DNA from: Heptranchias perlo
Lineage: Eukaryota
DNA: 64,000 bases
Direction of reading: 5' to 3'
Assembly (NCBI RefSeq): GCF_035084215.1
Contig: NC_090366.1
Coordinates: 10,478,001-10,542,000, forward strand
The position numbers and the translations under genes are program-made. The notes under the pieces were generated by a model that was not told the DNA's origin, made no database searches, and saw only the letters and a program-made list of their open reading frames with translations. Position 1 is the stretch's first letter; each line of letters opens with the position of its first letter. Shown here piece by piece: positions 2,161 through 35,582 of this stretch.

Positions 2161-5100
2161 AAATACAAAGAGTGTGTGGGAGGGAGAGGGACAGCCCAAT
2201 AGATCGAGTATACAGACAATGTGTGTGTGTGAGAGAGAGAGAACCCAACAGGCACAGAGTAGGCAGAGAGTGTGTTTCAGAGGGAGATCCCAACAGATAC
2301 AGAGTATACAGAGAGAGAGTGTGTGAGAGAGAGAGAAAACCCAACAGGCACAGAATAAGCAGAGTGTGAGAGACGGAGGGAGTGCCGAACAGACAGTGAG
2401 TTTATAAGGAGTGTGTGTGTCAGAGAGGGAGTGTCCACAGGCACAGTGTATACAGACAGTATGTGTGAGAGAGAGAGGATAACAGACACAGGTACACAGA
2501 GTGTGTTTGAGAGTGTGAGGACAACAGACACACATTATAGACAGACAGTGAGAGAGGGAGCAACACACAGACTGGGAAAATCTGAGAGAGAGAGAACGAG
2601 AGAGTAAAATATAGAGAGTGAGAGAAAATCCGATGCATATTATATATATATATATATATAGATAGATAGATAGAGAGATACATCAGTTGAGACTAACAAA
2701 CTCAACAAAGGCCGGGCGGGAACTGCACCTTTTCTGCACTGAGTGGTGCAGTATAACACCGGGTGAGATCAGCTAATTCACCACGGGCCAGGGTTGGAGC
2801 AGGGGCCTTGCCTGCTCTGTGTGGGGATCAGTTGCACACAGGGTTAGAACAGCTAATTCACCATAGGTCGAGGGTGGAACCTGGGCAGTTCCTGCGCTGT
2901 GTGGGGCTGAGTACCGCACCCCGTTGTGATGAGATAACAGCACAGGGTGGGGATGGAACCTGGGCCCGTTCTGCTCTGTGTGTGACTCAGTACAACACAG
3001 CGTGAGAACAGCTACCTCAGCAGAGGCGTGTGATGGATCCTGGGACCCGACGTGCACTGTGCTTATGACTCACTACAAACTGGGTATGTTCAGCTGAATC
3101 AGCGCAGGCCGGACTGGATCCTAGGCCTTTCCCGCTCTGTGTTCGGCGCAGCACCCAGTGGGACTGTGAGAGTGAGAGAGAGCTGAACAGACACAGTGTA
3201 CACAGATACTGTATATGTGAGCGAGAGGGAGAGCCCAACAGGCACAGAGTATACAGATTGTGTGTGAGAGAGGGAGAGAATAACAGACACAAAGTATACG
3301 GAGAGTGTGTGTGAAAGGGAAACGATAACAGATACAAAATATACAGAGAGTGTGTATGAGAGGGACAGGATAACAGACACAAAGTATACAGAGAGTGTAT
3401 GTGTGAGAGAGAGCGAGAGCCCAACAGACAGAGTATACAGCGAGTGTGTGTGCGAGGGAGAGGGAAAGCCCCTCAGACACCGTGTATACCGAGAGTGCGT
3501 GTGGGTGAGAGAGGGGCAGCCCAACAGGCAGTGAGTATATAGATACTGTGTGTACGAGGGAGAGGGCGAGCCCAAGAGACACCGTGTATGCAGCGGGTGT
3601 GTATGTCTGAGGGGGAGAGCTCAACAGACACAGAGTATTCAGAGAGCGTGGGTGTGGGATGGTGAGGATGACAGACACAGGGAACACAAAGAGTGTGTTT
3701 GCGAGGGAGCGCCCAACTCACACAGCATATACACAGAGTATGAGGGAGAGGGAGAGCCCAACAGATACAGAGAGACAGCGAGAGTGAGAGAGAGAGAGCA
3801 ACAGACAGACAGGGAAATACTGAAAGAGGGAGAGAGAGAAAAACATAGAGAGTGAGAGAATATGCGATGCATATTTTATATATTTAGAGAGAGAGAGTAG
3901 CACTCCGGGTAAGATTAACAAACTCATCACAGGCAGCGTGGGAACTGGGCCTTTTATGTTCTATCTCAGTGGCTCAGTACAACACCGGGTGCGATCAGCT
4001 ATCTCAGCACAGGCCGAGAACGGAGCCTGGGCCCTTCCTGCTATGGGTCGTGCTCAGACATACATCGGTTGAGATCAGTTAATTTACCATAGGCTCCGAT
4101 TGAGCCTGGGCCATGCCTGCTGTGTGTGTGATTCAGTTCCAAACCAGGTGAGATCAGTTAATTCATCAAAGGCTGAGGGTGGAAACTGGGCCTTCCTGCT
4201 CCACGTGGGGCTGAGGAACACACGCCATTGTGATAAGATAACAGCACGTGTCGGGCATGGAGCCTGGGCCCTTCCTGCTCTGTGTTTGTGACTCAGAACC
4301 AGACTGGGTGAGTTCAGCTAAATCAGCACTGGCTGGGATGGATCCTGTTCCGTTCCCGCTTTCTGTGGGGCGCAGTACCTAGTGGGGCTCTGATAACAGA
4401 AACAGAGTATGCAGAGATTGTGTGTGAGAGAGATAGGGAGAGGCCGACACAAACGGAGAATAGAGAGAGTATATGTTCGAGAGAGAGAGAGATAGCCGAA
4501 TAAACACAATGTATACAGATTTTGTGTGTGAGAGGGAGAGGATAACAGATACACAGTATAGAGAGAGTGTGCATGTGAGAGGGAGAGCCCAACCGACAAA
4601 GAGTATAGAGAGTGGGTGTGAGAGGGAGAGGATACAGAGAGAATGTGTGTGAGAGATAGAGGATAACAGACACAAAATATAGAAAGAGTGTGTGTAAAAG
4701 GGAGAGGATAACAGACAAGGAGTATACAGATACTGTGTGTGAGAGAGTGAGGATTTCAGAAACAGAGTATACAGAGGGGGTGTGTGCGAGAGAGAGAGAG
4801 AGTGAGCCCAAGAGACACAGTGTCTGCAGACAATGTGTGTGTGTGTTTGTGTGTGTGAGGGAGCGAGCTCAACAGACACAGAATCTTCAGAGGGTCTGGG
4901 TGTGAGAGGGAGAGGATAACAGACACAGAGTATTCAGAGAGTGTTTGTGAGGAGAGCCCAACAGATACTGAGCATACAGAGAGACGGCGAAAGTGAAAGA
5001 GGGAGCAACAAACAGAGAGGGAAATTCTGAAAGAGAGAGAGAGAGTAAAATATAGAGAATGAGAGAGTGTACGGTGCAAATTATATTTATTTCGAGAGAG

Positions 5101-8100
5101 AGAGTGCCACTCCGGTGGAGATTAACAAATTCACCTCTGGCCTAGTGGGAACTGGGCCTTTTATGCTCTGTCTCAGTGGCTCAGTACAACACTGGGTGAG
5201 ATCAGCTATCTCATCACACGCCGAGAACGGAACCTGGGTCCTTCCTGCTTTGTGTGCGTCACAGGCATACATCTGTTGAGATCAGCTAATTTACCACAGG
5301 CTGCGATTCAGCCTGGGCCATGCCTGCTGTGTGTCTGATTCAGTACCAAATAGGGTGAGAACGGATAGTTCATCAAAGGCCGAGGGTGGAAACTGGGCCT
5401 TCCTGCTCCAAGTGGGACTGAGTAACACACACCATTGTGATAAGATAACAGCACGTGTCGGGCATGGAGCCTGGGCCCTTCCTGCTCTGTGTTTGTGACT
5501 CAGTGCCAAACAGGGTGAGTTCAGCTAAATCAGTACAGGCTGGGATGGACCCTGGGCTGTTCCCGTTCTGTATGGGGCGCAGTACCTAGTGGGGCTGTGA
5601 AAGCAGAAACAGAGTATGCAGAGATTGTTTGTGTGAGAGATAGGGAGAGGCCAACAGAAACGGAGAATACAGACAGTATGTTTTCAAGAGAGAGGGAGAG
5701 AGATAGCCGAATAGACACAGTGTATACAGATATTGTGTGTGAGGTAGAGGGCAACAGAAACAGAGTATACAGAGAGTGTGTGTGTAAGAGGGAGAGGATA
5801 ACAGACCAAAGTACACAGTGTGGGTGTGAGAGGGGGAGAACCCAACAGACACAGAGTATACAGATACTTTGTGTCTGAGCGACAGAACTCAACAGACACA
5901 GAATATACACCGTGGGTGTGAGAGGGAGAGGATAAGAGACACGAAGAATACATAGAGTGTGTGTGATAGAGGGGAAGAGCCTAACAGACATAGAGTATAC
6001 AGTGCGGGTGAAAGGGAGAGGATAACAGAAACTGGGTATACAGAGAGAATGAGTGTGAGTTAACATTCACAGTGTATACAGATATTGCGTGTGTGAGAGA
6101 TAGGGAGACGCCAACAGAAACAGAGTATACAGGGCGTATGTATGGGAGAGAGAGAGAGAGACAAACAGACACATTATGTACAGATATTGTCTGTGAGAGG
6201 GAGAGCCCAAAAGAAAAGAGGGTGTGTGAAAGAGGGAGAGGATAACAGACACAAAGTATACAGAGCGCGTATGAGAGCGGTAGAGGAAAGAAGACACAAA
6301 TAATACAGAAAGTGTGTGTGAGAGGGAGATGATAACAGAAGCAGAGTATACAGAAAGTCTTTGTGTGAGAGAGGGAGAGTCAAATAGACACAGAGTACAC
6401 AGATACTGTATGTGTAAGGAAGAGGACAACAGACACAAAATATACAGAGTGTTTGTGAGGAGGAAAGGATATCAGAGACAGAGTATAGAGTGAGTGAGTG
6501 CGAAGCGAAAAGCCCAACAGGCACAAAATATACAGAGTGTGTGTGAGAGAGGGAGAGGACAACAAACGTAAAGTATACAGAGTGTGTGTGGGAGGGAAAG
6601 GATAATATGCACAGCGTATACAGTAAGTGGGTGTGAGAGTGAAAGCCCATCGGACAGAGTGTATACAGTGAGGGTGTGAGAGGGAGACAACAACAGACAC
6701 AGAGTATTCAGAGTGTGTGTGTGTGAAGGAGAGGGCAACAGACACAAAGAATATACAGATACTGTGTGCGAGAGAGAGGTCGATCCCAAGAAACACAGTG
6801 GGTGCAGAGAGTGTTTGTGTGTGAGGGAGAGAACTCAACAGATAGAATCTGCAGGGAGTGTTGGTGTGGGAGGGAGAGGATAACAGTCACAGGGTACACT
6901 GATAGTGTTTGTGAGAGGGAGAGCCCAACAGACACAGAGTATACAGATTCAGCGAGTATGAAAGGGGGAGCAACAAACACATGGTGAAATTCTGAAAGAG
7001 AGAGAGTAAAATATAGAGTGAGAGAGTATACGGTGCATATTATATATATTTCGAGAATGTACCATTCCGTGGGAGATTAACAAACTCAACTCTGGCCGAG
7101 TGGGAACTGGGCCTTTTATGCTCTGTCTCAGTGGCTCAGTACAACACTGGGTGAGATCAACTATCTCATCACAGGCCGAGAACGGAGCCTTGACCATTCC
7201 TACACTGTGTGCGGCTCAAACACACATCGGTTGAGATCAGCTAATTTAACACAGGCTGCGATTCAGCCTAGGCCATGCCTGCTGTGTGTGTGATTCAGTT
7301 CCAAACTGGGTGAGAACAGATAGTTCATCAAAGGCCGAGGGTGGAAACTGGGCCTCCCTGCTCCACGTGGGGCTGAGTAACACACGCCATTGTGATAAGA
7401 TAACAGCACGTGTCGGGCATGGAGCCTGGGCCCTTCCTGCTCTGTGTTTGTGACTCGGAACCAAACTGGGTGAGTTCAGCTAAACCAGCACAGGCCGGGA
7501 TGGGTCGTGGGCCGTGCCCGCTCTGTGAGGGGCGCAGTACCCAGTGGGGCTTCGATAACAGAAACAGTGTAGACAGATATTGCCTGTGTGATAGATAGGG
7601 AGAGCCCAACAGAAACAGAGTTTACAGAGAGTATGTATGAGAAAGAGAGAGCCGAACAGACACATTGTATACAGATACTGTGTGTGAGTTGGAGAGCCCA
7701 ACTGACACATAAATTTACAGAGAGTGTGTGAGAGGGAGTGGACAACAGATACAAAGTATATAGTGTGTGTGAGAGAGAGAGGGGGGGAGAACCCAACAGA
7801 CACAGAATATACAGAGAGTGTGTGAAAGGGAGAGGGCAACAGACACAAAGTATACAAAGAGTGTTTGTGAGGAGGAGAGGATAACAGACACAGAGCTTAC
7901 AGTGTTCGTGTGAGAGAGAGAGGACAACAGACACAGAGTATACAGAGAGTGTATAAGAGAGGGAGAGGACAACAGACACAGAGTATACAGAGTGTATGAG
8001 GAGGAAAGGATAATAGACACAAAGTGTACAGTGAGTGGGTGTGAGAGCGAAAGCCCAACAGACACGGAGCATACAGTGTGGGTGTGAGAGGGAAAACCCA

Positions 8101-9291
8101 ACAGACACAGTGTTTACAGAGAGTGTGTGCAAGAGGGAAAGCCCAACAGACACAGGCCGTACAGTGTGGGTGTGAGAGGGACAGGATAATAGTCACAGAC
8201 TATGCAGAGTGTGCGTGAGAGACGGGGAGAGGCCAACACAAAGTGCTTATATAGTGTGTATGAGAAGGAGAGCTCAACAGACACAGAGTATACAGAATGT
8301 GTGTATGAGAGACGGCGACTCCAGCAGACGTAGGGTATATACAGTGTGCGTGGGAGGGAGAGCCCAACAGACACAGAGTATCCAGAGTGTGTGTGTGAGA
8401 GGGAGAGCCCAACACACACAGCATATACAGAGAGTGTTTGTGAGAGGGCAGCACACACAGAGTATACAAATACTGTGTGTGTGAGAGAGAGAGTGAGACC
8501 CCAACAGACACCGAGTATACAAATACTGTGTGTGCGAGAGAGAGGGCGAGCCCAAGAGACAAAATGGATGCAGAGAGAGTGTGTGTGCTGGAGAGAGCTC
8601 AGCAGAGCATAATATTCAGAGGGTGAGAATGTGAGAGGGAGAGGAAAACAGACACAGGGTGCGCAGGGAGTGTTAGTGAAAGGGAGAGCCCAACAGACAC
8701 AGAGTGCACAGAGAGACAGCGAGAGTGAGAGAGAACAACAGAGAGGGAAGTGCTGAAAGAGAGAGAGAGTAAATATAGAGAGTGAGAGACTAAACGATGC
8801 ATATTATATATATTTCGAGAGAGAGAGGGTAATACTCCGGGGCAGATTAACAAACTAACCACAGTGGGGTGGGAATTGGGTCTTTTATGCTCTGTCTCAG
8901 AGGCTCTGTACAACACCGGGTGAGATCAGCTACTTCAGCATAGGCCGAGAACGGAAACTGGGCCCTTCCTGCTTTGTGTGAGACTCCGACACACATCGGC
9001 TGAGATCAGCTAATTTACAACAGGCTACTGAGTAACACACGCCATTGTGATAAGATAACAGCACAAGCTGGGCATGGAATCTGGGCCCTTCCAGCTCTGT
9101 GTTTGTGACTCAGTACCAAAGTGGGCAAATTCAGCTGAATCAGCACAGACCGGGTTCGATCCTCGCCCGTTGCCACTCTGTGTGGGGCTCAGTACATTAC
9201 CGAATGAGATCGGCTGCTTCTGCACAGACCAGTTATGGAGTCTGGGCCCTCTCTGCACTGTATACGTTACTCAGAACCAAACTGGGTGAGA

Positions 9292-10930: not shown

Positions 10931-12042
10931 CAGGATAGACCTGGGCAATTTTCAGCTAACTCAGCACAAACCGAGGATGGGTCCTGGCCCTTTCCTGCTC
11001 TGTGTGGCTCAGAACCACACCGGGTGAGGTCAACTAATTCAGCACAGGCCGACGATGGAATTTGGGCCCTTTCTGCTTTGTTTATGACTCACTACGAAAC
11101 GGGGTGAGATCATGTAACTTATAACAGGCCGTGATTGAGCCTGGGCTCTGCATAGTTGTTGGTCTCAGTACCACGCCAGGTGAGATCAGCTAATTCTGCA
11201 GAGGCCGCCGATGGAGCGTGGGCCCTTGCTGCTCCAAGTAGGGCTGATTACCACATCCCATTGTGATTTAATAACAGCACAGTCTGGGGATGGAACCAGG
11301 TGCTATTCGGCTGTGTGTGTGAATCAGCGGCACACGGGGTGAGATCAGTTATCCAAGCACAGGACGAGGGCAGAGCCTGGGCCCTTGCTGCTCCATTCTG
11401 GGCTGAGTAACACACCCCATTGTGATAAGATAACAACACAAGCCGGGCATAGAGCCTGGGCCCTTCCTGGACTGTGTTTGTGAATCAGTACCAAACTGGG
11501 TGAGTTCAGCTAAATCAGCACAGGGCGTGATGGGCCCTGGGCCGTTCCCGCTGTGTGTGGGACTCAGTACCACACCGGGTGAGATCAGCTAATTTAGCAC
11601 AGCCCATTGGTGGAGTCTGGGCCCTCCCTTCTCTGTGTGTGACTCAGTACCAACATCAGCAAACACAACACAGGCCGGTGAAGAATCCTTGCGCCCTCCT
11701 GCTCTGCGTGGCTCAATACCACACCGTGTGAGATCAGTTAACTCACTACAGGCCTGATTTGACCCAGAGACCTTGTCTGCTTTGTGGGACTCAACGCCGA
11801 AACAGGAGCACAGGCCAGGGATTGAAACTGGAATCTTAGTGCTGCATGTGTGGCCGAATACCCCACCCCATTGTAATTAGATTACAGCACAGGCCCCTGA
11901 TGGAACCTGGTGCAATTCTGCTCTGTGCGTGACTCAGTACCACACCGGGTGAGATCAATTATCTCAGTACAGGCCGGCGATGGTACCTGGGCCCTTCCTG
12001 CTCTGTGCATGTAACTCACAACCAAATTGGGTGAGTTCAGCT

Positions 12043-12260
12043 ACCCAGAGAGTGGTGAGAATGTGGAAATCGCTACCACAAGGAGCAGTTGAGACAAATG
12101 GCATAGACACATTTAAGGGGAAGCTCGGTAAGTACACGTGGGAGAAAGGAATTGTAGGTCATGCTGATAGGTTTAGATGAAGAGGGATGGGAAGAGGCTC
12201 GTGTCAAATATCGGTTGGGCCGAGTGGCCTGTTTCTGTGCTGCTCATTCTATGTAATTCT
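12043..12260 (+). mobile_element. CR1 LINE 3' fragment ending the satellite
   Basis: Translates TQRVVRMWKSLPQGAVE, followed by GGGCCGAGTGGCCTGTTTCTGTGCTG...TTCTATGTAATTCTA tail. Confidence 0.85.
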
Positions 12261-12958
12261 ACGTATTTTCTTTCCTTCCCCCTTCCTCTGATGCTGGAAT
12301 TCCTTTCCATTGACCCTCGACACTTTCCAGTGTCTTACCGAAGTCACCATTTTCCCAGTATGGGCTGAGCGCATCAATGTCTATTTGCTATTCGACCGTG
12401 GGGGAATCACGTTAGAACGCCTCTCTTGCGTTCACCAGCCCACGTCTACTTCTCAGCGGCGATCATTGGCTAGCGATCAGGAGGGAGCTCACTGGCTGAT
12501 GTGCCTGTCTTTCTAGCCTGCGAATTCTAAACTAAATAATAATTAAAATATGTATTAAAAGGCAAATGATCGTAGGCGGCTGCAAAACGTAAAGTAATAG
12601 TTGAAATGGAACGCGAGGGGCCACGGTGGAAGGATGAAACGAAACTAATTAAAGTGGAGGTAAAATCTTAAAATCAGCCCAACCTCGATTTTTGGATTTG
12701 CCACTCGCAGCGTGCCATTGAAATCAGTTGCAATGAAAATCGGGCCTTTTCTGTAATGGGCCGCCTATGATGCCACCAGCCTAAATTAGATCATTGAACT
12801 GAAAACAGGCAGGATAAAATTAGTACCCTTTCAATGGTAAATGACTGAAGGAGAAGTCTTTTTTTTTTAAATGTTGTCAACATAATTTTGGGTTGTTAAA
12901 TCTGTGACATGATTTATGTTTGCTGGGCTGCATTAAATCCAGTAAAGTGAAAGCAGTC

Positions 12959-13044
12959 TGTTTGTTCAAATGACTGTGACTAACGTCAGTAACGATGTTG
13001 CATAATTGTCTCACTGGAGACGTCACTCAAGTATATATCAGGGA
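12959..13044 (+). promoter_or_regulatory. Putative core promoter of GPCR paralogue 1 (block conserved in all three paralogues)
   Basis: TGTTTGTTCAAAT...TAATTGTCTCACTGGAGA...CAAGTATATATCAGGGA. The TATA-like element at 13032 is ~80 nt upstream of ATG 13111. Alignable to 46485-46571 and 60881-60965. Confidence 0.7.
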
Positions 13045-13110
13045 CACTTTGTACTGTATCACCGTGCATGTCCCTGACCCGTTGTCTCCACCACCTGAAT
13101 CTAACAGAAA

Positions 13111-16100
13111 ATGCATGAACCAGTAAAGGGTGCGGTTTACGCCATTTATTATCCAGTTCTTGCAGCTGTTGGTGTTCCGGGTAAGTCATTCTGCAGTTTG
13201 TTCATTATGTAAGTAAGTGTTTAACTCGTTCACGTCTCTTGCCGTGTATGTTATGTATATAGAATTACATCGAATGTACAGCACAGAAACAAGCCATTCG
13301 GCCCAACTTGTCCATGCCGGCGTTTATGCTCCACACGAGCACCCTCACACCTCTCTTCATCTCACCCTATCAGCATATTCTTCGATTCCTTTCTCCCTCA
13401 TGTACTTATCTAGCTTCCTCTTAAATGCATCTATGCTATTCCTACAACTATTCCATCTGGCATCGAGTTCCACATTCTAACTACTCTCAGAGTAAAAAAG
13501 TTTCTCCTCAGTTCCCTGGTAGACTTATTAGTAACTATTCTATATTTGTAGCCCTTAGTTTTTGTCTCCTGTACAAGTTGAAACATCCTCTCTATGATGA
13601 ACCTATCAAACCCTTAAAGACCTCTATCAGGTCATCCCTCAGCCTTCTCTTTTCTAGAGGAAAGAGCCCCAGTCTGTTGAATCTTTCCTACTAGCTGTAA
13701 CCTCTCAGTTCTGGTATCATCCTTATGATTTTTTTTGCACCTTCTCCAGTACCTCTATATCCTTTTTATAATAGGGAGACCAGAACTGTGCACAATACTC
13801 CAAGTTGTGCTTTAACTTCTATCTTGATGCATTTGCCACAGTCAACCCTTCAGTGCTACTCGTGACATCAACACCAACATGGAAAGGCAATCGTGACAAT
13901 AACGGAAGGACATGATATGGGAGCAATAAGATCCGACAATGTCATCACTCACAGCGACTTCCAGGCTCATGGTGAGCAGTTTAGTGGAAATCACTCCAGC
14001 TGATTGCAAACAGACAGCATCAGAGAAGAAATGCTTTAAAACTGCGTGCAGTTGCATAAAGATATTTCACTCCAAAACTAATGTAAAAGCTATTATGAAT
14101 TCCGCTTCCGCCGTTATCTCTGGTAGTTTATTTCATGCCCAAACACCTCCAGCCTAAAAGAATCCTAACTTTTCCCGTGGTTTTTTGGCAATGATTTTAA
14201 ATTGTTGTCCTATGGTTATCCCACTCCTCCACCAGTAGAAATAGTTTCGTTTGTCCCCTTATATACCATATTGAAACCTCTCAAATTTATGAACACTTCG
14301 ACCAGATCTCCTCCTAAACTTCCCTATTCTGGTGAAACCGCAGTGTCAGCCTGGATTGTGCGCTCGGGTCTGTGGAATGGGCCTTTGAACCCAGGACCAT
14401 TTTGCTCCGGGGCGAGAGTGCTGCCACTGAGCCACGACTAAGGCCATGAACTGTTTGATTTTGCAGGAAATTGCGCAGAGCTGCGAGGCAACGTTCTCCG
14501 CAGCTCCTGCGAATTAAATTAACGAAAATGCTTACAGCTGGGTCTGTGGTGTTGAATTGCTTGAATTTGAACTTTAAGAAAAGATGCGCTATCAGCCCTG
14601 ACTCTGAGCAGCGTGAATTGCCGCAAGGCTGGAAAAGTGTGTGAGGAGAAGACACGCCTACAAAATCTGTCAGAAAGAGAAGTCCCGCCCACAGATTCAG
14701 GCTGCATTGCTCAAGCAGGCAAGCAGAATTCATCCATTAAAAGTTAGTATTCTGGATGTCATTGTAAACAAAAAATTAAATTGTTTTGTGTAAAAAGCCA
14801 AAGAAATAATTTAACTAAATTAAAGAGGCAGAAGGGAAAAGAGTTTTTTTTTAATTTAAAATAATTTAATGACCAAAAACTGTTAAAATAAGGAGTAATA
14901 TGAGACTTCACATTTTTAAAAGTTCATTTATAATTGTTTGGCAGTCATTAAGACTTACTGCGCTATTAAAACTTAGATTAGACCTGGTATTTTTAATCAT
15001 ACCTATTTGGTGGCGTAATTAGTTACTTTCCAGCTGGGCAAATAATTTGCCACTTCTCCATCCAATGATTTCTCTGATTGCAGCGTGCGATGGCCCTTTA
15101 ATTCGAAGCTGTCATATCGCCGGCAAACCAGTAGGAACAAGTTCCGGATTTCCGCGTATCACTGTGCATGTGTTAACGTGGGAACTTGCTTCTTTAATTC
15201 GCCGCTAAAAACGGAAATCGCTGTTAAGCTCCTCCGTTATTTAAGGAGCGATTTCTGCCCCAATATGTTTTACAGCCGCCAGTTCATGTAGTGCCAATGG
15301 GAGCATCTACGTGAACACATTGCTGGTCCAGTGTGGCAAATAAATGTTCTACTGTAGCATTTTTCATCCTCAGCTGATATGTTGATAGGTTGGGAGGAGG
15401 CTCCTGTGGAGCATTAACACCCGCATGGACCTATTGGGCCGCACGGCCTATTTCTGTGCTGTAAAATTCTTTGTAATTCTATGAAAGAAGCTCCAGGTTC
15501 TCCTGCATGCTTTCTACAGCTAAAGCCACACATCCCGGGTATCATGTTAGTGAATCTCCAGCTTGCCATCGGGAGCATAACTGGCGTTGCGGATTCCAGA
15601 AACTGCACGATTTCCATTTCTACCGACTTCAATGGCACGCCGCGCGTGATATATTGGAAAATCGCGATTGCACTGATTTTAAGTTTCGACCTCCATTTTA
15701 ATTAATTTCGTTCCATCCTTCCTCCCCCTTATTCCATTTTACTTTATATTTATCAGTCACCTACCATGCTTTTATTTCTCTTATTGTGCACATTTTAAAT
15801 ATTTAGTTTTATTTTGAAACTAACCTCAACTGTCCGTCGGAAAACTGACACGATCGGTTGCATCGCTCGTTTTACGCCCCGCCTGATTTTGCACATGATT
15901 GACATGAATGGAGTGGTGTATTGGGCTGGGTGTAAAACCGGCCTTCCACTCGATAGGGTGGTCCTGCCGCCCGGCGAGTTAGGTTAAAATTATCCCTTTT
16001 CAGTCACCAGAAAGCGACCGTGTCGGCGGATGCGTTTGTTTCCCTTCCATTGATGCAGTTATGAAACTTGGAACTTCAGGCAAAATCCTGCGAATTGATA

Positions 16101-17046
16101 CTTTCTGCTGGGAGTCTAGTCAGTAATTTTCTTCTATCTTGCAGTTAACATAATGGCGATTGCGATCCTGTCCCGGGGTAAGTGCGGTCTCTCCAAATGC
16201 ATCACTCACTATCTGGTGGCCATGGCTGTAGCCGATCTGCTGGTCGTCATCATCGGTGTGATATTAAACCGGGTCATTGGCATTTACCTTCCAGTTAGCG
16301 CCTTGTCCATTACTCCGGTGTGCCGTCTTAAAACGGTCTTAGTTTATGCATCCAGAAACTGCTCTGTCTGGTTAACAGTCGCTTTCACCTTTGATCGATG
16401 CGTTGTCATCTGTTGCCAGAAGCTAAGAACGACATATTGCACCATGAAAACGGCAGCTGTGGTTGTTGGCACGGTGTTTGCTCTGAGCTATTTGCAAAAT
16501 ATCCCCTGGTACTTTGTACTTGAACCTGTGTACTTTATTAACAATGTACCAATGTATTGCGGCATCAAATCTAGTTTTTATATATTAGCTACGTGGATAG
16601 CATTTTCGTGGATTAATCATATATTAACACCGTGCCTTGCAATTTTACTTATTTTATTGTTCAACGTGCTGACAGTAAGACATATATTAGCGTCCAGTAG
16701 AGTCCGCCGGGCACTGAGGGGCATTAACAGTGCTGAATATAACATTGATCCGGAGTTGGAGAGCCGAAAAAAGTCCATTATTTTACTCTTCAGTATATCC
16801 GGAAGTTTCGTCATGTTATGGGCAACATATACAGTTCATCACCTATATTACCGAATCACAACCACTTATGTCTATACAGGTTACAACGACCCTGTCTTTA
16901 TTCTTCAAGAATCCGGACATATGCTTCTCCTTTTGAGCTGCTGCACAAACACGTGCATTTACGTCGTGACCCAGAATAAATTCAGGGAAGAGATGAAGAA
17001 TGTAGTGAAATATCTGCTGGCACTGATTGTCAAATTCGTGAAATGA
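13111..17046 (+). CDS. Class A orphan GPCR, GPR139/GPR142-like paralogue 1; join(13111..13180,16145..17046), ~323 aa
   Basis: Exon 1 encodes MHEPVKGAVYAIYYPVLAAVGVP, then G|gtaagt. Acceptor ttgcag| at 16144, phase 1, continues [17 protein letters not shown]. Seven-TM pattern with AMAVADL, FDRC, PMYC and NTCIY. AATAAA at 17205. Confidence 0.92.
13258..13810 (-). mobile_element. CR1 LINE 3' fragment in the GPCR1 intron
   Basis: ATAGAATTACATCGAATGTACAGCACAGAAACAAGCCATTCGGCCC is the reverse of a CR1 tail; degenerate RT C-terminal coding follows. Confidence 0.85.
14338..14438 (-). mobile_element. tRNA-derived SINE head fragment
   Basis: Minus strand TGGCTCAGTGG (A box) ... GGTTCAAAGGCC (B-box-like); similar to the head of the SINE at 27748-28182. 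Confidence 0.6.
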
Positions 17047-17864
17047 CGAAAAGAACCAAAGATCCCTTAATATTCAGAATTCAGATCTTCATCTCTTCCC
17101 ACCCATGAGATTTCTGCAATGGGGAAAAGGGCGTTGCCTTGTAGTTATATCACACTGGGATTAGTTTTGTTTGCTGATGCTTTACGTTTGCTCGACGTGT
17201 CTTAAATAAACCGACTCGATTAAAACAGCCCCGCTACAACTCAGTGGTAAGCAGCAAGGATGGTATCGGTTGATTACGTTGTGCTGTGGGCGCAAGGGTT
17301 TCTCAAGAAGGCATAGTGTGATGTGTTAGTAAATGGTTCATAATTGAAATACTTCTGCCTATGTGAATTTTATTATAATCAGCACAGCCGAAGAAAAGAA
17401 AATGAGGTTTAAAATAATCCAGGTGGTTGAACGTAATATTAACGGTAAGGCAGTTGTACTCCCTGTGTTGAAATTCGTCATTCTGATGGGTTCCAAAGCA
17501 ATCTATCGAGAAATACGCATCAACAGAGTTCACCTTGTCTAATGCTGACTACTCAATCTTTCCCGCTGGGATAGGCTCTTCATAGTCAAACCCAGGAAAC
17601 GTAGCTGTGGGTTGGTCTCTTTCTGAAATACCCGCACCATGGGCTCAATTTTAGCGGGGAATTGGGGGTGCGTTGCGGGCGGGGGTGCTCCGAAAATCGG
17701 GGAAATCCCAGTTCGGGTTCGGAGCCCGGCTCCAACTCGCCGACTTCCGAGTTCCCCACGGACGCACCTGTGTGCGCGCAGGCGTCCTGAATACGGAAGT
17801 GCCGGCGGGATGATAGTTAAAGAGCCAAATGTACCTCATTGAGCTGCTTAATGCACTTACTTCT

Positions 17865-18000
17865 GACAAATGTAAGGAGTCTTACAACACCAGGTTATAG
17901 TCCAACAGTTTTCAAATAAAACTGTTGGACTATAACCTGGTGTTGTAAGACTCCTTACATTTGTCCACCCCAGTCCATCACCGGCATCTCCACATCATGG
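17865..18000. mobile_element. Penelope-like terminal fragment forming a perfect 48-bp inverted repeat
   Basis: 17865-17912 is the exact reverse complement of 17918-17965 (loop CAAAT), followed by CACCCCAGTCCATCACCGGCATCTCCACATCAT. The Penelope assignment is from recognition only. Confidence 0.65.
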
Positions 18001-18314
18001 TTACTTGTGACAGATTACGTACTTAGAACGATTTTTAAACTTACCTGGGCGGCTTGCCCACCACCTCTTATTCACACCTGATGAAACCAGGGGTGAAGGG
18101 CCAGATCAGGGGGAGTGGGAGTCAGCAGCGTAGTTCCTTGGTTATGTTTTTAATGAGTCATCCCTCGTTGTTGCACACTTATAACTAACGCCTTATATAT
18201 AGAATCGTATGAGCATAATTTTATCGGGGGTGCTGAGGAGGGGTGGGAGGGATTCCTGACGGGAAACCCATAAGTCTTTACGGTTTTGACGTGTTTTTTT
18301 GATGGTTTCCCGCC

Positions 18315-21665: not shown

Positions 21666-22920
21666 GTAAGACATGTGCAAGAAATGTGCAAGAAAATGTG
21701 CAAGAAAATCAAAAAGTTAGTATGCAGGTGCAGCAGGTGATCAAGAAGGCCAACGGAATGTTGGCGTTTATTGCTAGGGGGATAGAATATAAAAACAGGG
21801 AGGTATTGCTGCAGTTATATAAGGTATTGGTGAGACCGCACCTGGAATACTGCATACAGTTTTGGTGTCCATACTTAAGAAAAGACATACTTGCTCTGGA
21901 GGCAGTACAAAGAAGGTTCACTCGGTTAATCCCGGGGATGAGGAGGCGGACATATGAGGAGAGGTTGAGTAGATTGGGACTCTACTCATTGGAGTTCAGA
22001 AGAATGAGAGGTGATCTTATTGAAACATATAAGATTGTGAAGGGGCTTGATCGGGTGGATGCAGTGAGGATGTTCCCAAGGATGGGTGAAACTAGAACGA
22101 GGGGGCATAATCTTAGAATAAGGGGCTGCTCTTTCAAAACTGAGATGAGGGGAAACTTCTTCACTCAGAGGGTGGTAGGTCTGTGGAATTTGCTGCCCCA
22201 GGAAGCTGTGGAAGCTACATCATTAAATAAATTTAAAACAGAAATAGACAGTTTCCTAGAAGTAAAGGGAATTAGGGGTTACGGGGAGCGGGCAGGAAAT
22301 TGGACATGAATTTAGATTTGAGGTTAGGATCAGATCAGCCATGATCTTATTGAATGGTGGAGCAGGCTCGAAGGGCCGATTGGCCTACTCCTGCTCCTAT
22401 TTCTTATGTTCTTATGTTCTTACATGTAATGCAAGTTGTTTTTCATAGGTACTAAGGGGGAAATTTCGTGCTCACAGTCAAAATGCCACAAGTAACAAAT
22501 TATGTCGAACTGCGACTTGAAACTGACGCCGTAGTATGGGGGGACCAATGAAATATATGATCACTGAATGTTTTTAAATTCTGGCGTTATACTGCTGGGT
22601 GTTTTCCTGTCCGATAAACTCCTATGTTAAAATTCGCCATATTTTAAAGGAAAATATGCAGCCGTGGGGATTGGGCAGGTTTTTCCTGCTCAATTTTATT
22701 TCTGCTGTTTTAATATATATCAAAGAATCATACAGCTGAGAAGGAGGCCATTCGGCCTATCGTGCCTGTGCCGGCTCTTTGAAAGAGCTATCCAATTAGT
22801 CCCACTCTCTGCTCTGCCCCCAAAGCGCTGCAAATTTTCTCCCCTTCAAGTATGTATCCAATTCCCTTTTGAAATTCACTATTGAATCTACTTCCACCAC
22901 CCTTTTTGTGCACTTTATAT

Positions 22921-28900: not shown

Positions 28901-31900
28901 TGACTTTGACTTGCAACATTGGTGAAGGAAGCTTGCCTCAGTTTGTTTGGCGGAAGGACAAGCAACAGCTCGCAGGCGGCCTCAGGTTTCTCTTAACGAA
29001 CGGCAACCGCAGCCTGTCGATTCGAAACTTTACCAACTCGGACTGCGGGACTTACACCTGCATAGTTCGAAACGGCATCAGCAAGAAAGAAACTACACGG
29101 GCATTGTTTGGTGAGTATATTATCGGGCATAAAAAGTTCATGCCAATAATTAACGTGCAGCTCATTGAGGGATATGGCAGCATTATGGTTGTGATATTGA
29201 ACTAGTCATCCAGAGGCCTGGATGGATATTCCAAAAATTGGGAGTTCAAATCCCACCATGACAGTTTGATCATTTAAATTCAATTAAGAAAATACTAGAA
29301 ATAAAAAGCTCGTATCAACAAAGTGACCATGAAACTGTCGGATTGTCGTTAAAAACCCAACTGGTTCACTAATATCCCTCTAGAAAAGGAAACCTGTCAT
29401 CCTTACTCAGTCTGGCCTCAGCCACACATCGTGGTTGACTCCATTGCCACACCATCGTGGTTGACTTCGAACTGCCTTCTGAGGTGGCCTAACGAGGCCC
29501 TCAGTTGTATCAAACCTGCTACCAGCGGTTCAAGAAGAAGGCCCACCACCACCTTCTCAGGGCAACTAGGGAGTGGCAGTATGTGTGGACTTTTAAAGCA
29601 ACACCCACATCTCGAGAATGAATTATTAAAGGAAGGAAGCAGCATGATCACTATGTGTAGGGACAGCACAAATATCCTCATGTGGTTTCCTCTTTTGCTT
29701 TAACTAGAGAAATCCAAATCCGTTATTTTTGAATAGATTTGCGATTTTGCTAGAACGACCAACCGTATGAGATCTTAGCGACGGTTTTGTTTGGGGATAA
29801 ATTCCTCTTAGTGTTAGCGCTAAAACGGGCGATTTTCTTTTCCATTGACTTCAAAAGCACGGGTTGAGAGGCTGCCCGGGCGAGCAGGCATTATGTCATC
29901 CTGAGAAAGGACAGGATGTGTCTCTCCCATGGAGCCAATGCCACTCTCACCCGGCTGCGCCTCAGCACTCCCACTGCTCTGGGGGACAAACGATTTCGGC
30001 AGTGATGAAGCACTCTTCATTCCCTATTCAGGCTCTCCTTCTGCTTTGAATGAATGAGGAAATTAGGTGGTCAAAAATAGGTCTCAAGCAATTCTTCTTC
30101 CACTGTCCGCTATTTTAGTACCAATATTTGTTTGAAATAAAGGTCCTGAATGGCTCTGTACTAATTTCGCACAGGTCTTCAAGTTGATAATTGTTATTTA
30201 ATGTAATACTGTCAATACCAAATTCCCTCTCTTTAACTTACAGGTGAAGACGACTCAAAATGTGAGATTTCAAATTACCTGATTACAATAATCGCTGTGG
30301 CTATTTGCGTGGTAGGGTTGGGATTAGTCATTAACTTCATCAAAAAATGTGTGAATTCCCGTACAGGTAAATGAAGTCACGATATTGAATTTATCAGAAT
30401 CAGTTCATAATCTATTATAATATTACCTTTGGTGAAGAAATGATTGGTCCATGTTAATAATTCTCTGCTTTTCCCGCAAGATAGAAATACGGACCTGGTT
30501 CACTTGGATCACAGGTATGGGAATAATTTAGACTATTTGAGGTTCATTTGAACCTAACTCGCAGGGCAGGAAACCCATAAGCAGTAGAATGTGTATTGCG
30601 TTCTTTTGAATTTTGGGATCCGTTTGATATACAAAAATACTGTTTTTTTCTGACATATATATTTCTTTGACAGATAGGTGGATATATTCTACCATCACAA
30701 ACTTAATGATATAATTGAAATTAGTAATAGTAATTAATTTAGTGTTTCGAAATCTTTGTAAAAATAACAGCATGGCAAGCAGTTGTTTTAAGTTTCTTTG
30801 AATTCGAGAGATGTTCACAGTTGAATTTCGTTCCATGTATCTGAACGTAATTATTTATTATTTCAGTCGTAGCATTTTTAAGTTAAGGTGTGATTGCGTG
30901 CTTAATGGTGCATTTTATCGTCCTCAGCTCAAACCCAGCTGTGCACGGACAAAAGCAGCAGAGGTGAGAATCGGTTATTAAATCACAAATCAATGAAATT
31001 GAGAGCGAAAGATTTAGTGTTATTGCCTTGGGTTCCAATCTTAAATTAAGGCAAATTGTGTCCAAATTGTATTCTCAGAAAACAACACAAGACCATCCCA
31101 GGACCCTCCCAACAACGGAATGGGTATGTTAAGTATAATCCAGTTCAGCAGTAGTGCTTATGATTGCTTGTCCGTGTAAAGAGACAACATTAAAGTATAA
31201 ATAGCAAGCATCAATAGCCAGAGTTAAAGCTCTATCTGTTTCCTGTTGAAATCTAATTGTTCGAAGTCTAATCCAGTGATGAACTGGATGCACTGGGTGG
31301 TTATTTATAAGACATCGATCTATCTATCATCTATCTACCTATCTATCTATCATCAATTCATCATCTATCTATCATCTATCATCTATCTGTTCATCTTTCT
31401 ATCTATCATGTCTGTTTGTCTGGCTTTATGTCTGTACCGTTGTTTGTCTTGAAATAGACAGAACCGCAGTGAGGAAAGCACAGGAGAAACGACGGAGGGA
31501 AACAAAAGATAAATTATGAAAATAAAATGAACAGGAAAAAGCTAGAACAACGCAAAAAGATTTAGACAGCTACAAGCAGAGCAGTGGAGCAAGATAGAAT
31601 ATACAAAAAAACATGACTTTAAAATGTTCTTTATTCTGTTTTAAAATGTGATTATCCACTAAACTGCACATATATGATAAAGTGCAGTTACCAAAATTGC
31701 TTCTATTATTCCTGTTTTGTCTTCCCAAAGAGTTGAGCAGAACAATTATCATTGTAAGAATCGTAAGAAGGGAGAACTTCAATAAGATTTCCCAACATCT
31801 ACTTACAAAAGATTACACTATTCATAAGCTATATCATCGCGAATGCTGCAGTAAAGTTTTGAAACATTCTGTGATTTATTTTCTTTACTGTGTCAATTTT

Positions 31901-34900
31901 TTTTTTTTAAAATCACATCATAATTAAATGTCTTTGCAGATGACGAAGTTATATTCTCCCTCTCCCAGCACGCTATCGTGTTAAAGTTACGATTCAATAG
32001 GCAGTGTCCTATTCGAAATTATTGTTTCACCAAAACCTCAAAACTGTGTAACATCCCTCTTTAATTCCCTTTACACTTCTCATCATACTATAGCTCTTAA
32101 AGGCTCTTGAAATCCAACTTCCATGTCAGATAATATCGACATCTTGATTCAACCTTGGAACTGCTCAGCATCTGAGCCCATAATTCTCTATTTTGCCCGT
32201 GATTTCCCTTTTGCATTCTCTGTGCAAAACTGCAACTTTGCAAGAGAAATTCTGAGGGAAAAAAGCTCTTCACTGTTAAAGTTGGCCTCCCCATTCGACC
32301 TATTAGTATCACCGTAATAGAGACCATATCTGTAATATTGCTAATTTGAGATGTAAAGGTACTTTCCAAAGAGGATGAACATATCCTGCCTGCTCCGTTT
32401 AGCACGTAATGTGATAGCCACCTTCTTTTAAATAATGTTATAGCCTGTAAGTGAGGCTATTATTAGGAAAACACAAGGCGCTTTCTCTCTCTCTCGCTCT
32501 ATCTCGCTCTTACTATCTTTCCTCGTTTTCTCACTTCTTCTTAACATCTGCATGTACACAGTTCACACGCCCACTGTCGATTGTGGGGATTTTTGAAGAT
32601 GCATAATGACTATTTTTAGTAGTACAGGTTCATACCGATTCGATGCATTACTAGCACCTTACTTTCACTCAGACAGCAGCGCCAAGGACATTTTATCGTT
32701 ATACTAAAACCATTGAGATTAATTATTTGTTTTTGGTATTTTTCTAACCAGGAGGGGAAATCCTCAACGAACCGGACAGAATCGACGTGAGTAGCTTTTC
32801 CACATTATTCCTGAAGAATAACAATAGATTATTTTGCATATTGCCCTATTCTTAAGTGTGGGTATATTCTATCGAAATATGTAGCTTGCAATATTTCTTG
32901 CAGAATATATGAAATACATCTGTTTTTGATGTATCACACCGTTTTGGGTCAAGCGAAATCAAAACACTGACGAATTCATTTCCTATATAGTTTGCATGTT
33001 AATGCGACATATATAGTCCATGACCAATTCCACCTTCATGAGCACGAGTGTGAATATTATACCGATTGTCACATCAAGTTACATGTTCAAAATTAGTTAA
33101 CCGAAGGAAACATGGCTTGTGAAAAATCTGATGAAAATGCATGAACATAACAGTTTACGGTTCCATAAAGGTTTGCTTTGATTGAAGCTAGCAGTGTTTC
33201 CAAATTTTATGAACCCGTAGCACATTACAAGTTACTTTGGGTTTGTAGAGAGACGTGTTGAGTATTTTTACATAGCTCATCACACTTTAGTAGCCCTATG
33301 CTTTGAGAATTCAGAGAAGCAAGATCTTCCCTGAATCTCTATTATTTCCAAAGCAGTTAGGCACCAGCTCGTGCTTCTTATTTATGCATCATCTCCATTC
33401 ATCAGAGCAGCAACGAAAATGTAACTTAAAGCAAACACCTGCCAAAATTTGAAGTAAACTGTGATTGGGATCAAACACGGTGCATTCCTGCAATCCAGCC
33501 CATGGGGCATCCAATGGGAAAGATTCCTGTCTCCTCCAACCACCACCACATCCACTCCCCCCATCGCCACCCTCGCCAATCGTCTAAGGAAGGCTTCAGA
33601 CAGCGCTAGAAAAGCACGGACAAGGGAGGAAAATGTGAGCAGAACAAAGCCCACACGCACCGAGATAGAATATATTACTTTCATCAACTGATTAAGCATC
33701 GAATTCTCATTCAGTTTTGCACAGATGTATGGCACAAGAGGCAGATACCGTGTAATATAAGTCAGGGTCAATGTGGTCTCCTGGACTAGGTTCGATCGTC
33801 TAAAGGGATCGCAAAGAGTTGGTTCAGATTGTTTCCCCTAATTGCCCTGGGTTTTATCTGTTTCTTGCCTCTCCCAGGAGAGTACATGCGTTCGGGTGGG
33901 TGGGGAGTGACTGTATAGTGATGTACAATGCATCAGGACTGTCTGGTGATGTACAATGCATCAGGACTGTCTGGTGATGTACAATGCATCTGGACTGTCT
34001 GGTGATGTACAATGCATCAGGACTGTCTGGTGATGTACAATGCATCAGGACTGTATGGTGATGTACAGGACTATATGGTGATGTACAATGCATCAGGACT
34101 GTATGGTGATGTACAGGACTATATGGTGATGTACAATGCATCAGGACTGTATGGTGATGTACAATGCTTCAGGACTGCATGGTGATGTACAATGCATCAG
34201 GACTGTATGGTGATGTACAATGCTTCAGGACTGTATAGTGATGTACAATGCTTCAGGACTGCATGGTGATGTACAATGCATCAGGACTGTATGGTGATGT
34301 ACAATGCTTCAGGACTGTATGGTGATGTACAGGACTATATGGTGATGTACAATGCATCAGGACTGTATGGTGATGTACAATGCTTCAGGACTGTATGGTG
34401 ATGTACAGGACTATATGGTGATGTACAATGCATCAGGACTGTATGGTGATGTACAATGCTTCAGGACTGTATGGTGATGTACAGGACTATATGGTGATGT
34501 ACAATGCATCAGGACTGTATGGTGATGTACAATGCATCAGGACTGTATGGTAATGTACAATGCATCAGGACTGTATGGTGATGTACAATGCATCAGGACT
34601 GTATGGTAATGTACAATGCATCAGGACTGTATGGTGATGTACAATGCATCAGGACTGTATGGTGATGTACAATGCATCAGGACTGTATGGTGATGTACAA
34701 TGCTTCAGGACTGTATGGTGATGTACAATGCATCAGGACTGTATGGTGATGTACAATGCATCAGGACTGTATGGTGATGTACAATGCATCAGGACTGTAT
34801 GGTGATGTACAATGCATCAGGACTGTATGGTGATGTACAATGCATCAGGACTGTATGGTGATGTACAATGCATCAGGACTATATGGTGATGTACAGGACT

Positions 34901-35582
34901 ATATGGTGATGTACAATGCCTCAGGACTGCATGGTGATGTACAGGACTGTCTGATGATGTACAATGCATCAGGACTGTCTGGTGATGTACAATGCCTCAG
35001 GACTATATGGTGATGTACAGGACTGTCTGGTGATGTACAATGCCTCAGGACTATATGGTGATGTACAATGCCTCAGGACTATATGGTGATGTACAGGACT
35101 ATATGGTGATGTACAATGCATCAGGACTGTATGGTGATGTACAGGACTATATGGTGATGTACAATGCATCAGGACTGTATGGGAAAGGCTGGATTCTCCA
35201 GTTGGTGATTTCCTGTCCAACATTTCCGTGTGTTGGTAGTGGTTTCACAGGACACATTAATCAAGAGCTTTCTGAGTTAAGGCCTTTGGGTATTGGGCAG
35301 TGCTTGCGTAGGCAGTGGGGAACTGAGGTCAAGATTATAAAATGCTATATTATAACATGTTACTGATTCTCGGAAGGTAAAATGTATCTCAGATGGCCTG
35401 GTACTGTGGCACTTAAGTATCTTTTGTTCATTTTGCAGATGGAATACGAGTCTAATGGAGACGGAGGCGTTCGATATGTCTCCATGTATTTCCTGGGGAG
35501 TGGGTACCGGCCCGACCGAATTCAAGAACAAGAGGACGAGGGGGAGGATGGCTTTGAATATTCTTTGATTGCCTGTCGTTGA
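21602..35582 (+). CDS. CD2/SLAM/CEACAM-like Ig-superfamily type I membrane receptor; proposed join(21602..21665,26378..26692,28841..29110,30244..30366,30481..30514,30928..30963,31079..31123,32752..32786,35251..35327,35439..35582), ~380 aa
   Basis: All proposed introns are GT-AG and phase-compatible (1,1,1,1,2,2,2,1,0); total 1143 nt, open to TGA. Leader, IgV, IgC2, TM and the last exon are well supported. The cytoplasmic mini-exons, especially 35251-35327, are weaker. Confidence 0.75.
21673..22421 (+). mobile_element. Young 5'-truncated CR1 LINE
   Basis: Uninterrupted RT C-terminal frame to 22309, (TTCTTATG)n tail, and a candidate target-site duplication ACATGT at 21671-21676 and 22422-22427. 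Confidence 0.95.
22725..22905 (-). mobile_element. CR1 LINE 3' fragment
   Basis: AGAATCATACAGC...GGAGGCCATTCGGCC is the reverse of a CR1 3' UTR. Confidence 0.8.
23640..24175 (+). mobile_element. Degenerate CR1 LINE fragment
   Basis: TGTGTCCAATTCTGGGCACC (CVQFWAP) and ATAGAGGTGTTCAAAATG (IEVFKM) motifs with stops. Confidence 0.85.
26378..26692 (+). CDS. Ig receptor exon 2: N-terminal IgV-like domain without the canonical B-F disulfide
   Basis: Polypyrimidine tract plus ttacag|. Translation includes VTGVLGKSVLL...ITWDK...YQKRVE...SLKLLDLQTKDSGVYHA...VYLDVS, then G|gtaagt; 315 nt, phase 1-1. Confidence 0.9.
26850..27215 (+). mobile_element. L2 LINE 3' fragment
   Basis: Degenerate ...FKYSSLCLKAF...VFWNSI...FKTLLKTHL; same family as 62320-62870. 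Confidence 0.7.
27748..28182 (-). mobile_element. tRNA-headed Deu-domain SINE (SacSINE1/AmnSINE1-like) with L2-type tail
   Basis: Minus strand: tRNA-like head, central GTGCTGCACAGTCGGAGGTGTCGACTTTCCGACGAGAAGTTAAATCGAGGCCC...GAAGAGCAGGGGAGTTC, and tail AAAGGCGCTATACAAATGCAAG. Confidence 0.8.
28841..29110 (+). CDS. Ig receptor exon 3: IgC2-like domain
   Basis: ttacag| VPVSPPKI...LTLTCNI...FVWRKD...SLSIRNFTNSDCGTYTCIVRNGIS...LF, then G|gtgagt. Canonical C-W-C; sequons NSS, NRS and NFT; 270 nt, phase 1-1. Confidence 0.92.
29170..29630 (+). mobile_element. tRNA-derived SINE sharing its 3' tail with the LINE at 9292-10670
   Basis: B box GAGTTCAAATCC at ~29242; central AAAAACCCAACTGGTTCACTAAT; tail GCGGTTCAAGAAG...CACCACCTTCTCAGGGCAACTAGGGA. 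Confidence 0.8.
30244..30366 (+). CDS. Ig receptor exon 4: stalk and transmembrane segment
   Basis: ttacag| GEDDSKCEISN-YLITIIAVAICVVGLGLVINFI-KKCVNSRT, then G|gtaaat. Hydrophobic run followed by a KK stop-transfer signal. Too short for the ORF track. Confidence 0.88.
31315..31410. repeat. Degenerate (TCTA)n microsatellite
   Basis: Direct inspection. Confidence 0.85.
33905..35181. repeat. Minisatellite of 28-bp units with interspersed 20-bp deletion variants
   Basis: GGACTGTATGGTGATGTACAATGCATCA (28 bp) and GGACTATATGGTGATGTACA (20 bp), highly homogeneous over ~1.3 kb. Confidence 0.97.
35439..35582 (+). CDS. Ig receptor terminal exon with cytoplasmic tyrosine motifs
   Basis: Strong acceptor cttttgttcattttgcag|, then MEYESNGDGGVRYVSMYFLGSGYRPDRIQEQEDEGEDGFEYSLIACR*. 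VRYVSM and FEYSLI resemble ITIM-type motifs. Confidence 0.72.
   Translation: MEYESNGDGGVRYVSMYFLGSGYRPDRIQEQEDEGEDGFEYSLIACR

Follow-up and report, generated by a model that had tools for sequence, protein, structure and literature searches.

A probable TATA-type proximal promoter shared by three GPR139-like receptor genes of the shark Heptranchias perlo

What is the function of a short block of DNA that recurs ahead of three paralogous G-protein coupled receptor genes, and in which cells would it act? The window analysed here (the whole stretch of DNA under study, 64,000 nucleotides from Heptranchias perlo) contains three such genes, referred to below as A, B, and C. Their coding parts were located as follows.

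13111-13180, + strand: gene A, coding part of exon 1 (23 codons plus 1 nt)
16145-17046, + strand: gene A, exon 2; the exon-2 part is identical to P0001, and the protein has 323 aa
46334-46403, - strand: gene B, coding part of exon 1
40615-41531, - strand: gene B, exon 2; the whole protein of 328 aa is identical to P0010
60737-60806, - strand: gene C, coding part of exon 1
56060-56961, - strand: gene C, exon 2; the whole protein of 323 aa is identical to P0011

In each gene the coding part of exon 1 runs for 70 nt from the ATG to a GT donor, and the frame of exon 2 lies 3.0, 4.8, and 3.8 kb downstream of exon 1 (A, B, and C, respectively). The joined proteins are intact and 66-75% identical to one another; 7tm_1 was the only Pfam match in all three. 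P0001, P0010, and P0011 are NCBI models from Heptranchias perlo named "probable G-protein coupled receptor 139". A protein search returned 1,671 proteins at E 0.001 or better among 4,803 candidates. The best 120 of these 1,671 relatives comprise 118 with shark or ray names and 2 without a name; 27 of the 120 are labelled Heptranchias perlo, and a first exon of the same (MHEP) type opens 73 of them. The NCBI model P0001 starts gene A from another first exon (13917-13971, +), which is absent from all 120 of the best-matching relatives. We doubt this exon because it lacks a counterpart there and because contigs from a related organism, described below, splice 13111-13180; it is probably wrong or minor.

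A block of 81-84 bp was found ahead of each first exon.

12959-13041, + strand: putative promoter block of gene A
46571-46488, - strand: putative promoter block of gene B
60964-60884, - strand: putative promoter block of gene C

The initial annotation had described such a block ahead of all three paralogues, and all three copies were recovered, with its ends off by 1-3 nt. The upstream placement was confirmed, but the distance to the ATG, given as 80-170 nt, is 70-168 nt by alignment, and the spacer after TGTTTGTTCAAAT, given as 8-11 nt, is actually 11, 12, and 9 nt. Pairwise identity of the blocks is 65/83, 69/81, and 66/81 (78-85%), with z of about 15-16 relative to shuffles. Of the 81 ungapped columns 59 are invariant, whereas 100 random triples gave 11.4 on average and never more than 20. 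A search of the 64-kb window with the block profile gave exactly three matches (E 1e-23 or better), each preceding a first exon; the next match had E = 4. A dispersed repeat unlinked to these genes had been named as the finding that would undo the promoter claim. Since the profile matches only three places and gives no copies away from the three genes in the 64 kb, the block is not a dispersed repeat within this window. No Rfam matches were detected in the window. A pattern scan of metagenome contigs produced two matches; neither was accompanied by the remainder of the block or by a first exon, and these were taken as chance.

Conservation of the block was compared with that of 4-fold degenerate sites of the same genes, which are pairwise identical at 58/100, 54/98, and 70/105 positions (55-67%). 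The block exceeds these sites in each pair (Fisher p 0.003, 1e-5, and 0.017). In the three-way comparison 59/81 columns of the block are invariant vs 38/83 of the 4-fold sites (p 3.5e-4), a contrast that is inflated somewhat by block edges picked by eye. The question of whether conservation exceeds the neutral level, raised with the original claim, can thus be answered positively, and the sequence on both sides of the block is at the neutral level. Along the 5' region the invariant fraction is 0.25 and 0.33 before the block, 0.73 in the block, 0.39 from the TATA-like box to the predicted start, 0.42 in the 5' UTR, 0.64 in coding exon 1, and 0.51 in the first 80 nt of the intron. The counts for the upstream 85 nt (26/78), the TATA-to-start spacer (7/18), and the 5' UTR (20/48) are at or below the neutral 38/83, and the block is better kept than coding exon 1 (45/70 invariant).

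Repeats are inserted within about 200 nt of the blocks, none of them inside a block (12625-12757 and from 13254 in gene A; from 46748 in gene B). Because of these insertions the far flanks are a poor control, and their alignments (z near 0) were excluded as a neutral yardstick. It had been stated that the sequence around the genes is mostly not alignable; this is partly owing to the inserted repeats, and it does not apply to the first ~80 nt of the intron. The intron start is partly conserved past the donor in genes A, B, and C (39/77 invariant, z 5-6; 13181-13260, +, in gene A). It contains a forkhead-like word in gene A, and could act as a further element in regulation or splicing.

Similarity of this kind could also be a leftover from duplication, or from a recent gene conversion of a 5' cassette, without special function. 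The copies do share descent, the histories of exon 1 and exon 2 may differ, and with 4-fold sites still 55-67% identical some alignability is expected. However, linked sequence on both sides is at the neutral level, and the exon-1 4-fold sites (identical at 5/11, 5/10, and 5/8) are similar to those of exon 2, so that no conversion tract is seen. The differences in the block are, moreover, distributed over all three copies (4, 10, and 7). The neutral-like neighbours and the exon-1 4-fold identity make a recent conversion of the whole cassette unlikely, and leftover similarity in general is, in our view, very improbable as an explanation of the block.

The elements recognized in the block and in the region leading to the ATG are listed below; the assignments to factor classes and the starts are predictions.

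12959-12971, + strand: gene A, invariant 13-mer with a forkhead-like core, spanning roughly -102 to -90 relative to the predicted start
12983-12998, + strand: gene A, inverted repeat of 6-4-6 form, imperfect here but perfect in gene C
13003-13008, + strand: gene A, homeodomain-type site TAATTG, invariant
13011-13020, + strand: gene A, O/E-like 10-mer, 2 bp after TAATTG, 8/9 of TCCCyngrga
13032-13038, + strand: gene A, TATA-like box TATATAT, with an invariant TCAAG just before
13059-13061, + strand: gene A, invariant TCA, with the predicted transcription start at 13061
46526-46521, - strand: gene B, TAATTG
46518-46509, - strand: gene B, O/E-like 10-mer
46497-46491, - strand: gene B, TATA-like box
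46469, - strand: gene B, predicted start
60922-60917, - strand: gene C, TAATTG
60914-60905, - strand: gene C, O/E-like 10-mer
60893-60887, - strand: gene C, TATA-like box
60865, - strand: gene C, predicted start
13095-13113, + strand: gene A, acceptor-like UTR end
46420-46401, - strand: gene B, acceptor-like UTR end
60822-60804, - strand: gene C, acceptor-like UTR end

The homeodomain word TAATTG and the word TGTTTGT, both proposed earlier, are present and invariant in all three genes as predicted sites; the core of the 13-mer is one that we take to be forkhead-like. This word alone shifts its position among the genes, by 3 nt. The inverted-repeat pattern, of which GATGTT is the invariant right arm, is restricted to the three blocks in the window, and CTCACT, TCAAG, and ATATAT are further words invariant in all three. 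No indel occurs between the inverted repeat and the TATA-like box, and TAATTG starts 29 nt before the box in every gene. The boxes read TATATAT, CATATAT, and TATATAT (A, B, and C); the strict 8-mer TATAWAWR was matched in none of the three. The A of the invariant TCA sits 29, 28, and 28 nt after the start of the box, and 28-29 nt is the usual TATA-to-start distance. Transcription starts were therefore predicted at 13061, 46469, and 60865, implying 5' UTRs of 50-66 nt. None of the three blocks contains an AP-1 word or a full CRE; a half-CRE and an E-box occur but are not common to all three. All three 5' UTRs end in a pyrimidine run and CAG, 3 nt before the ATG. The same word, in translation, also precedes the start in the more distant family models P0101, P0006, and P0016, which suggests a UTR end conserved family-wide.

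Transcript evidence was sought in seven sequencing runs presumed to be RNA (none is so recorded), of which four were compared with 12300-18200 and four, three of them shared, with 12890-13249; the shares of the runs are not used here as a measure of tissue or level. Runs X2, X3, and X5 are three samples of one study of a different organism (organism B), about 94% identical in exon 2. In all three, exon 1 letters run directly into exon 2 letters; a single contig covers both exons in X2 (1229 nt) and in X3 (1238 nt), with matching record length and depth. Judged by their sequence, these contigs come from a close homologue of gene A in spliced form. Their genomic 5' ends fall at 13079 (X2), 13099 (X3), and 13082 (X5), or 18, 38, and 21 nt past 13061. 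Such contigs cannot map a start, and they never enter the block. The X2 and X3 contigs carry extra 5' letters, which we recognized as what is presumably library adapter; no upstream exon is then seen in these two runs. The contigs of all three runs read through the acceptor-like CAG ahead of the ATG. The spliced contigs favour the MHEP first exon over the NCBI exon at 13917 and are compatible with a start near 13061. Run X1, the best holder of gene A, and run X4 have no contig over exon 1; neither this absence nor the missing cover over the block was read as silence. In X1 one contig (15825-16173) runs from the intron into exon 2 and the next one starts precisely at the edge of exon 2, a pattern hinting at an unspliced form of gene A as well as another joined form.

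The same evidence bears on the alternative that transcription truly starts far upstream, the block being intronic or enhancer-like and the CAG before the ATG a splice acceptor. Such an arrangement would suit the pyrimidine-rich stretch that ends in this CAG in all three genes, and some automatic models do extend the protein upstream. In contrast, the contigs of all three informative runs pass the CAG and continue to 13079-13099 without a foreign 5' exon, and the TATA-like box and TCA stand at promoter spacing. We regard a far-upstream start as very improbable; a neutral remnant and an intronic element, even taken jointly, remain unlikely. The upstream extensions of five automatic protein models were also back-translated and searched for promoter words, and none scored above shuffles (p 0.19-1.0).

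Based on the constraint above the neutral level, the fixed geometry, and the contigs that use the adjoining first exon without entering the block, we consider it highly probable that the block is the TATA-type proximal promoter of three paralogous GPR139-like shark receptor genes. The earlier suggestion that the genes of a receptor multigene family share a proximal promoter, maintained by selection, is supported by both the constraint and the start-region evidence. In such a promoter the TATA-like box is predicted to set the start at the conserved TCA, 28-29 nt on. A homeodomain protein would bind TAATTG, and a second factor would bind the adjoining CTCACT-containing word; the best named candidate is an EBF-like protein at a weakened half-site. 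A forkhead factor may bind the upstream 13-mer. The bound factors, held at a fixed helical distance from TBP, would then activate the paralogues in a common cell type. For this cell type a chemosensory neuron is our leading guess, held at less than even odds.

The identity of this cell type was approached through known receptor promoters. Mouse odorant receptor (OR) promoters are enriched for O/E sites (246/314 within 200 nt), homeodomain sites, and TATA boxes, and the O/E consensus has been given as TCCCyngrga (PMC3247239, Table 1). The shark block is similar in having homeodomain, O/E-like, and TATA elements no more than 200 nt from the start (Young et al., 2011, PMC3247239; PMC12547500), and it likewise fronts a clustered GPCR multigene family. 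Unlike the mouse promoters, it has a broken O/E core and an additional forkhead-like 13-mer and inverted repeat, and in the shark genes the first exon is coding and carries only a very short 5' UTR. Scored on the consensus rather than on the full matrix, the O/E-like words (at about -50) match 8/9, 7/9, and 8/9 specified positions. In all three, A occupies the third position of the core (TCAC for TCCC), and two of the three variable positions of the word fall on the degenerate n and r of the consensus. A score of 8/9 in any of three registers is reached by 198 of 127,970 random window positions (0.15%), and 7/9 by 1.6%. The joint homeodomain and O/E-like score is reached by 3 of the 161 homeodomain-type sites in the window, which are the three blocks; here the threshold was set after seeing the sites, the motif was chosen after looking, and the three copies count as one evolutionary event. 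The O/E likeness noted in the initial annotation is therefore above chance at the level of the window, but with a mismatched core and a gap of 2 bp instead of 1 bp.

A closer arrangement of the two sites is known from the mouse Greek Islands, where the composite consists of two sites 1 bp apart (PMC11643329). The Sfaktiria probe, the only composite sequence compared here, is TAATTG, one base, and then an Ebf 10-mer (PMC5608512). It has been reported that the composite tolerates changes within its pyrimidine and purine runs and degenerate Ebf halves, that it is impaired by a 2-bp insertion (PMC5608512), and that it marks distal enhancers, not promoters (Monahan et al., 2017, PMC5608512). All three shark genes have the TAATTG hexamer of the Sfaktiria probe, followed, as in the composite (PMC5608512; PMC11643329; PMC7804114), by a pyrimidine-then-purine 10-mer. 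In contrast to the composite, the pattern of four pyrimidines, two free positions, and four purines is matched at best at 7/8 in any register (gaps 0-4) in all three genes; the 1-bp register agrees with the consensus at 3/8 bases, and the best register common to the three genes has a gap of 2 bp. The core mismatch and the 2-bp spacing place the block outside the mouse composite motif. On its letters, the block resembles a homeodomain-plus-partner module but does not belong to the composite family in its defined form. On the antisense strand of the donor region of genes B and C (46323-46340 and 60726-60743, +) there is a homeodomain hexamer followed after 1 bp by a weak O/E-like 10-mer (7/8 of the pattern, 5/8 exact); it is not kept in gene A and is probably a by-product of the donor sequence. 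Conserved promoter regions among receptor paralogues have also been described for mouse V1R subfamilies (Stewart and Lane, 2007, PMC1955453), where transcription starts within the conserved peak; conservation there covers about 1 kb vs about 85 bp in the shark.

The encoded proteins were compared with receptors of known structure. By sequence search, GPR139 chains are the top two of three matches among solved structures (E 3.9e-9). Human GPR139/GPR142 (PDB 7vug, 9m42) resemble the shark proteins in being this best match, in lending the GPR139 name to the automatic annotation, and, by alignment, in lacking the proline of NPxxY; they differ in that the match is distant only and that the shark set is a many-gene family. 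The fold search did not single out GPR139 (ranks 26 and 49); its matches are peptide and chemoattractant receptors generally, and no odorant receptor is among the matches listed. Signature motifs of OR and TAAR proteins (those in TM3, TM6, and TM7) were found in none of the 120 relatives, and the short PMY word in 8/120. The shark genes further differ from vertebrate OR genes in an intron-split coding region and in matching 7tm_1 only. By these features, genes A, B, and C are not odorant receptors. Variability is higher in the extracellular than in the intracellular halves of the helices (1.33 vs 0.77 bits, from 86 and 95 columns of 120 sequences; p 5e-7, with columns that are not independent and helices placed on a model whose mean pLDDT is 79.6). 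A variable outer face is common among class A GPCR families and names no tissue.

It is conceivable that the block is a genuine olfactory promoter of the Lhx2/Ebf type and that the family represents an overlooked smell-receptor repertoire, sparsely expressed and with one gene per neuron. The homeodomain site abuts the O/E-like word at -58 to -41 and is accompanied by a TATA box, as in mouse OR promoters (PMC3247239), the mouse composite can accommodate degenerate Ebf halves (PMC5608512), and the family is large, with a variable outer face. This possibility is weakened by the departure from the composite in spacing and core and by the lack of OR and TAAR motifs in the 120 proteins. In addition, the catshark work describes olfactory neurons that are apparently nearly all microvillous and ORs that are not expressed (PMC10116579), so that an OR-type programme cannot be assumed. 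We consider this reading doubtful.

A functional promoter for non-olfactory cells (leukocytes, brain or neuroendocrine cells, or gut or skin sensor cells) has a chance only somewhat short of even. Factors of the forkhead, homeodomain, and EBF classes also act outside the nose, and the CTCACT word may be read by another factor, e.g., a Pax paired domain. Among the invariant elements the strongest is the forkhead-like 13-mer and not the O/E-like word, the fold matches are to peptide and chemoattractant receptors in general, and mammalian GPR139 is found mainly in brain and pituitary (PMC6443882). By itself, however, this explanation does not account for a homeodomain site lying next to an O/E-like one. 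GPR139/142 subtypes have been catalogued in bony fish, with sharks unmentioned in the accessible portion of that catalogue (PMC6504862), and GPR139 is likewise unmentioned in the main text of a catshark paper (PMC11979771). A literature search, with most subscription journals outside its scope, returned no paper describing the shark and ray family or its promoter.

A more speculative reading, and one we think rather unlikely, is a fifth, unrecognised chemosensory repertoire of sharks and rays derived from a GPR139-like ancestor. Its genes would use a compact homeodomain-plus-EBF-type promoter joined to a TATA box in olfactory neurons, possibly with one gene per cell. If true, this would overturn the view of the shark nose as depending on a few dozen V2Rs. 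Expression of the family in olfactory neurons would resolve the discrepancy between the large noses of sharks and their small known receptor repertoire (PMC10116579).

As a promoter, the block is ordinary in kind, being a case of paralogues retaining control sites. What makes it useful is the access it gives to a very large, little-studied family of shark and ray receptors: the block is usable as a short genome-wide query that pairs first exons with receptor bodies, has already corrected the automatic model of gene A, and offers a predicted start site together with four separate sites for mutation. New in this study are the neutral-site test, the predicted start and its invariant TCA, the spliced first-exon contigs, and the failed composite-spacing test.

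Several other features of the window were observed. A 45-bp satellite forms a long tandem array at 2185-8715, and an 80-bp tandem array (10952-12043) ends about 900 nt before the gene A block. A 28/20-bp minisatellite of 1.27 kb occupies 33909-35182. Two LINE 3' fragments (21698-22415 and 59424-60141) lie in opposite orientation and are 97.9% identical over 718 nt; the LINE appears to be a recently active element. Open frames of 167-234 aa were found at 37363-38864 (+) and 29187-29995, with no Pfam match in the two that were scanned. They have a diverged inverted partner 9 kb away and are possibly a decayed DNA transposon.
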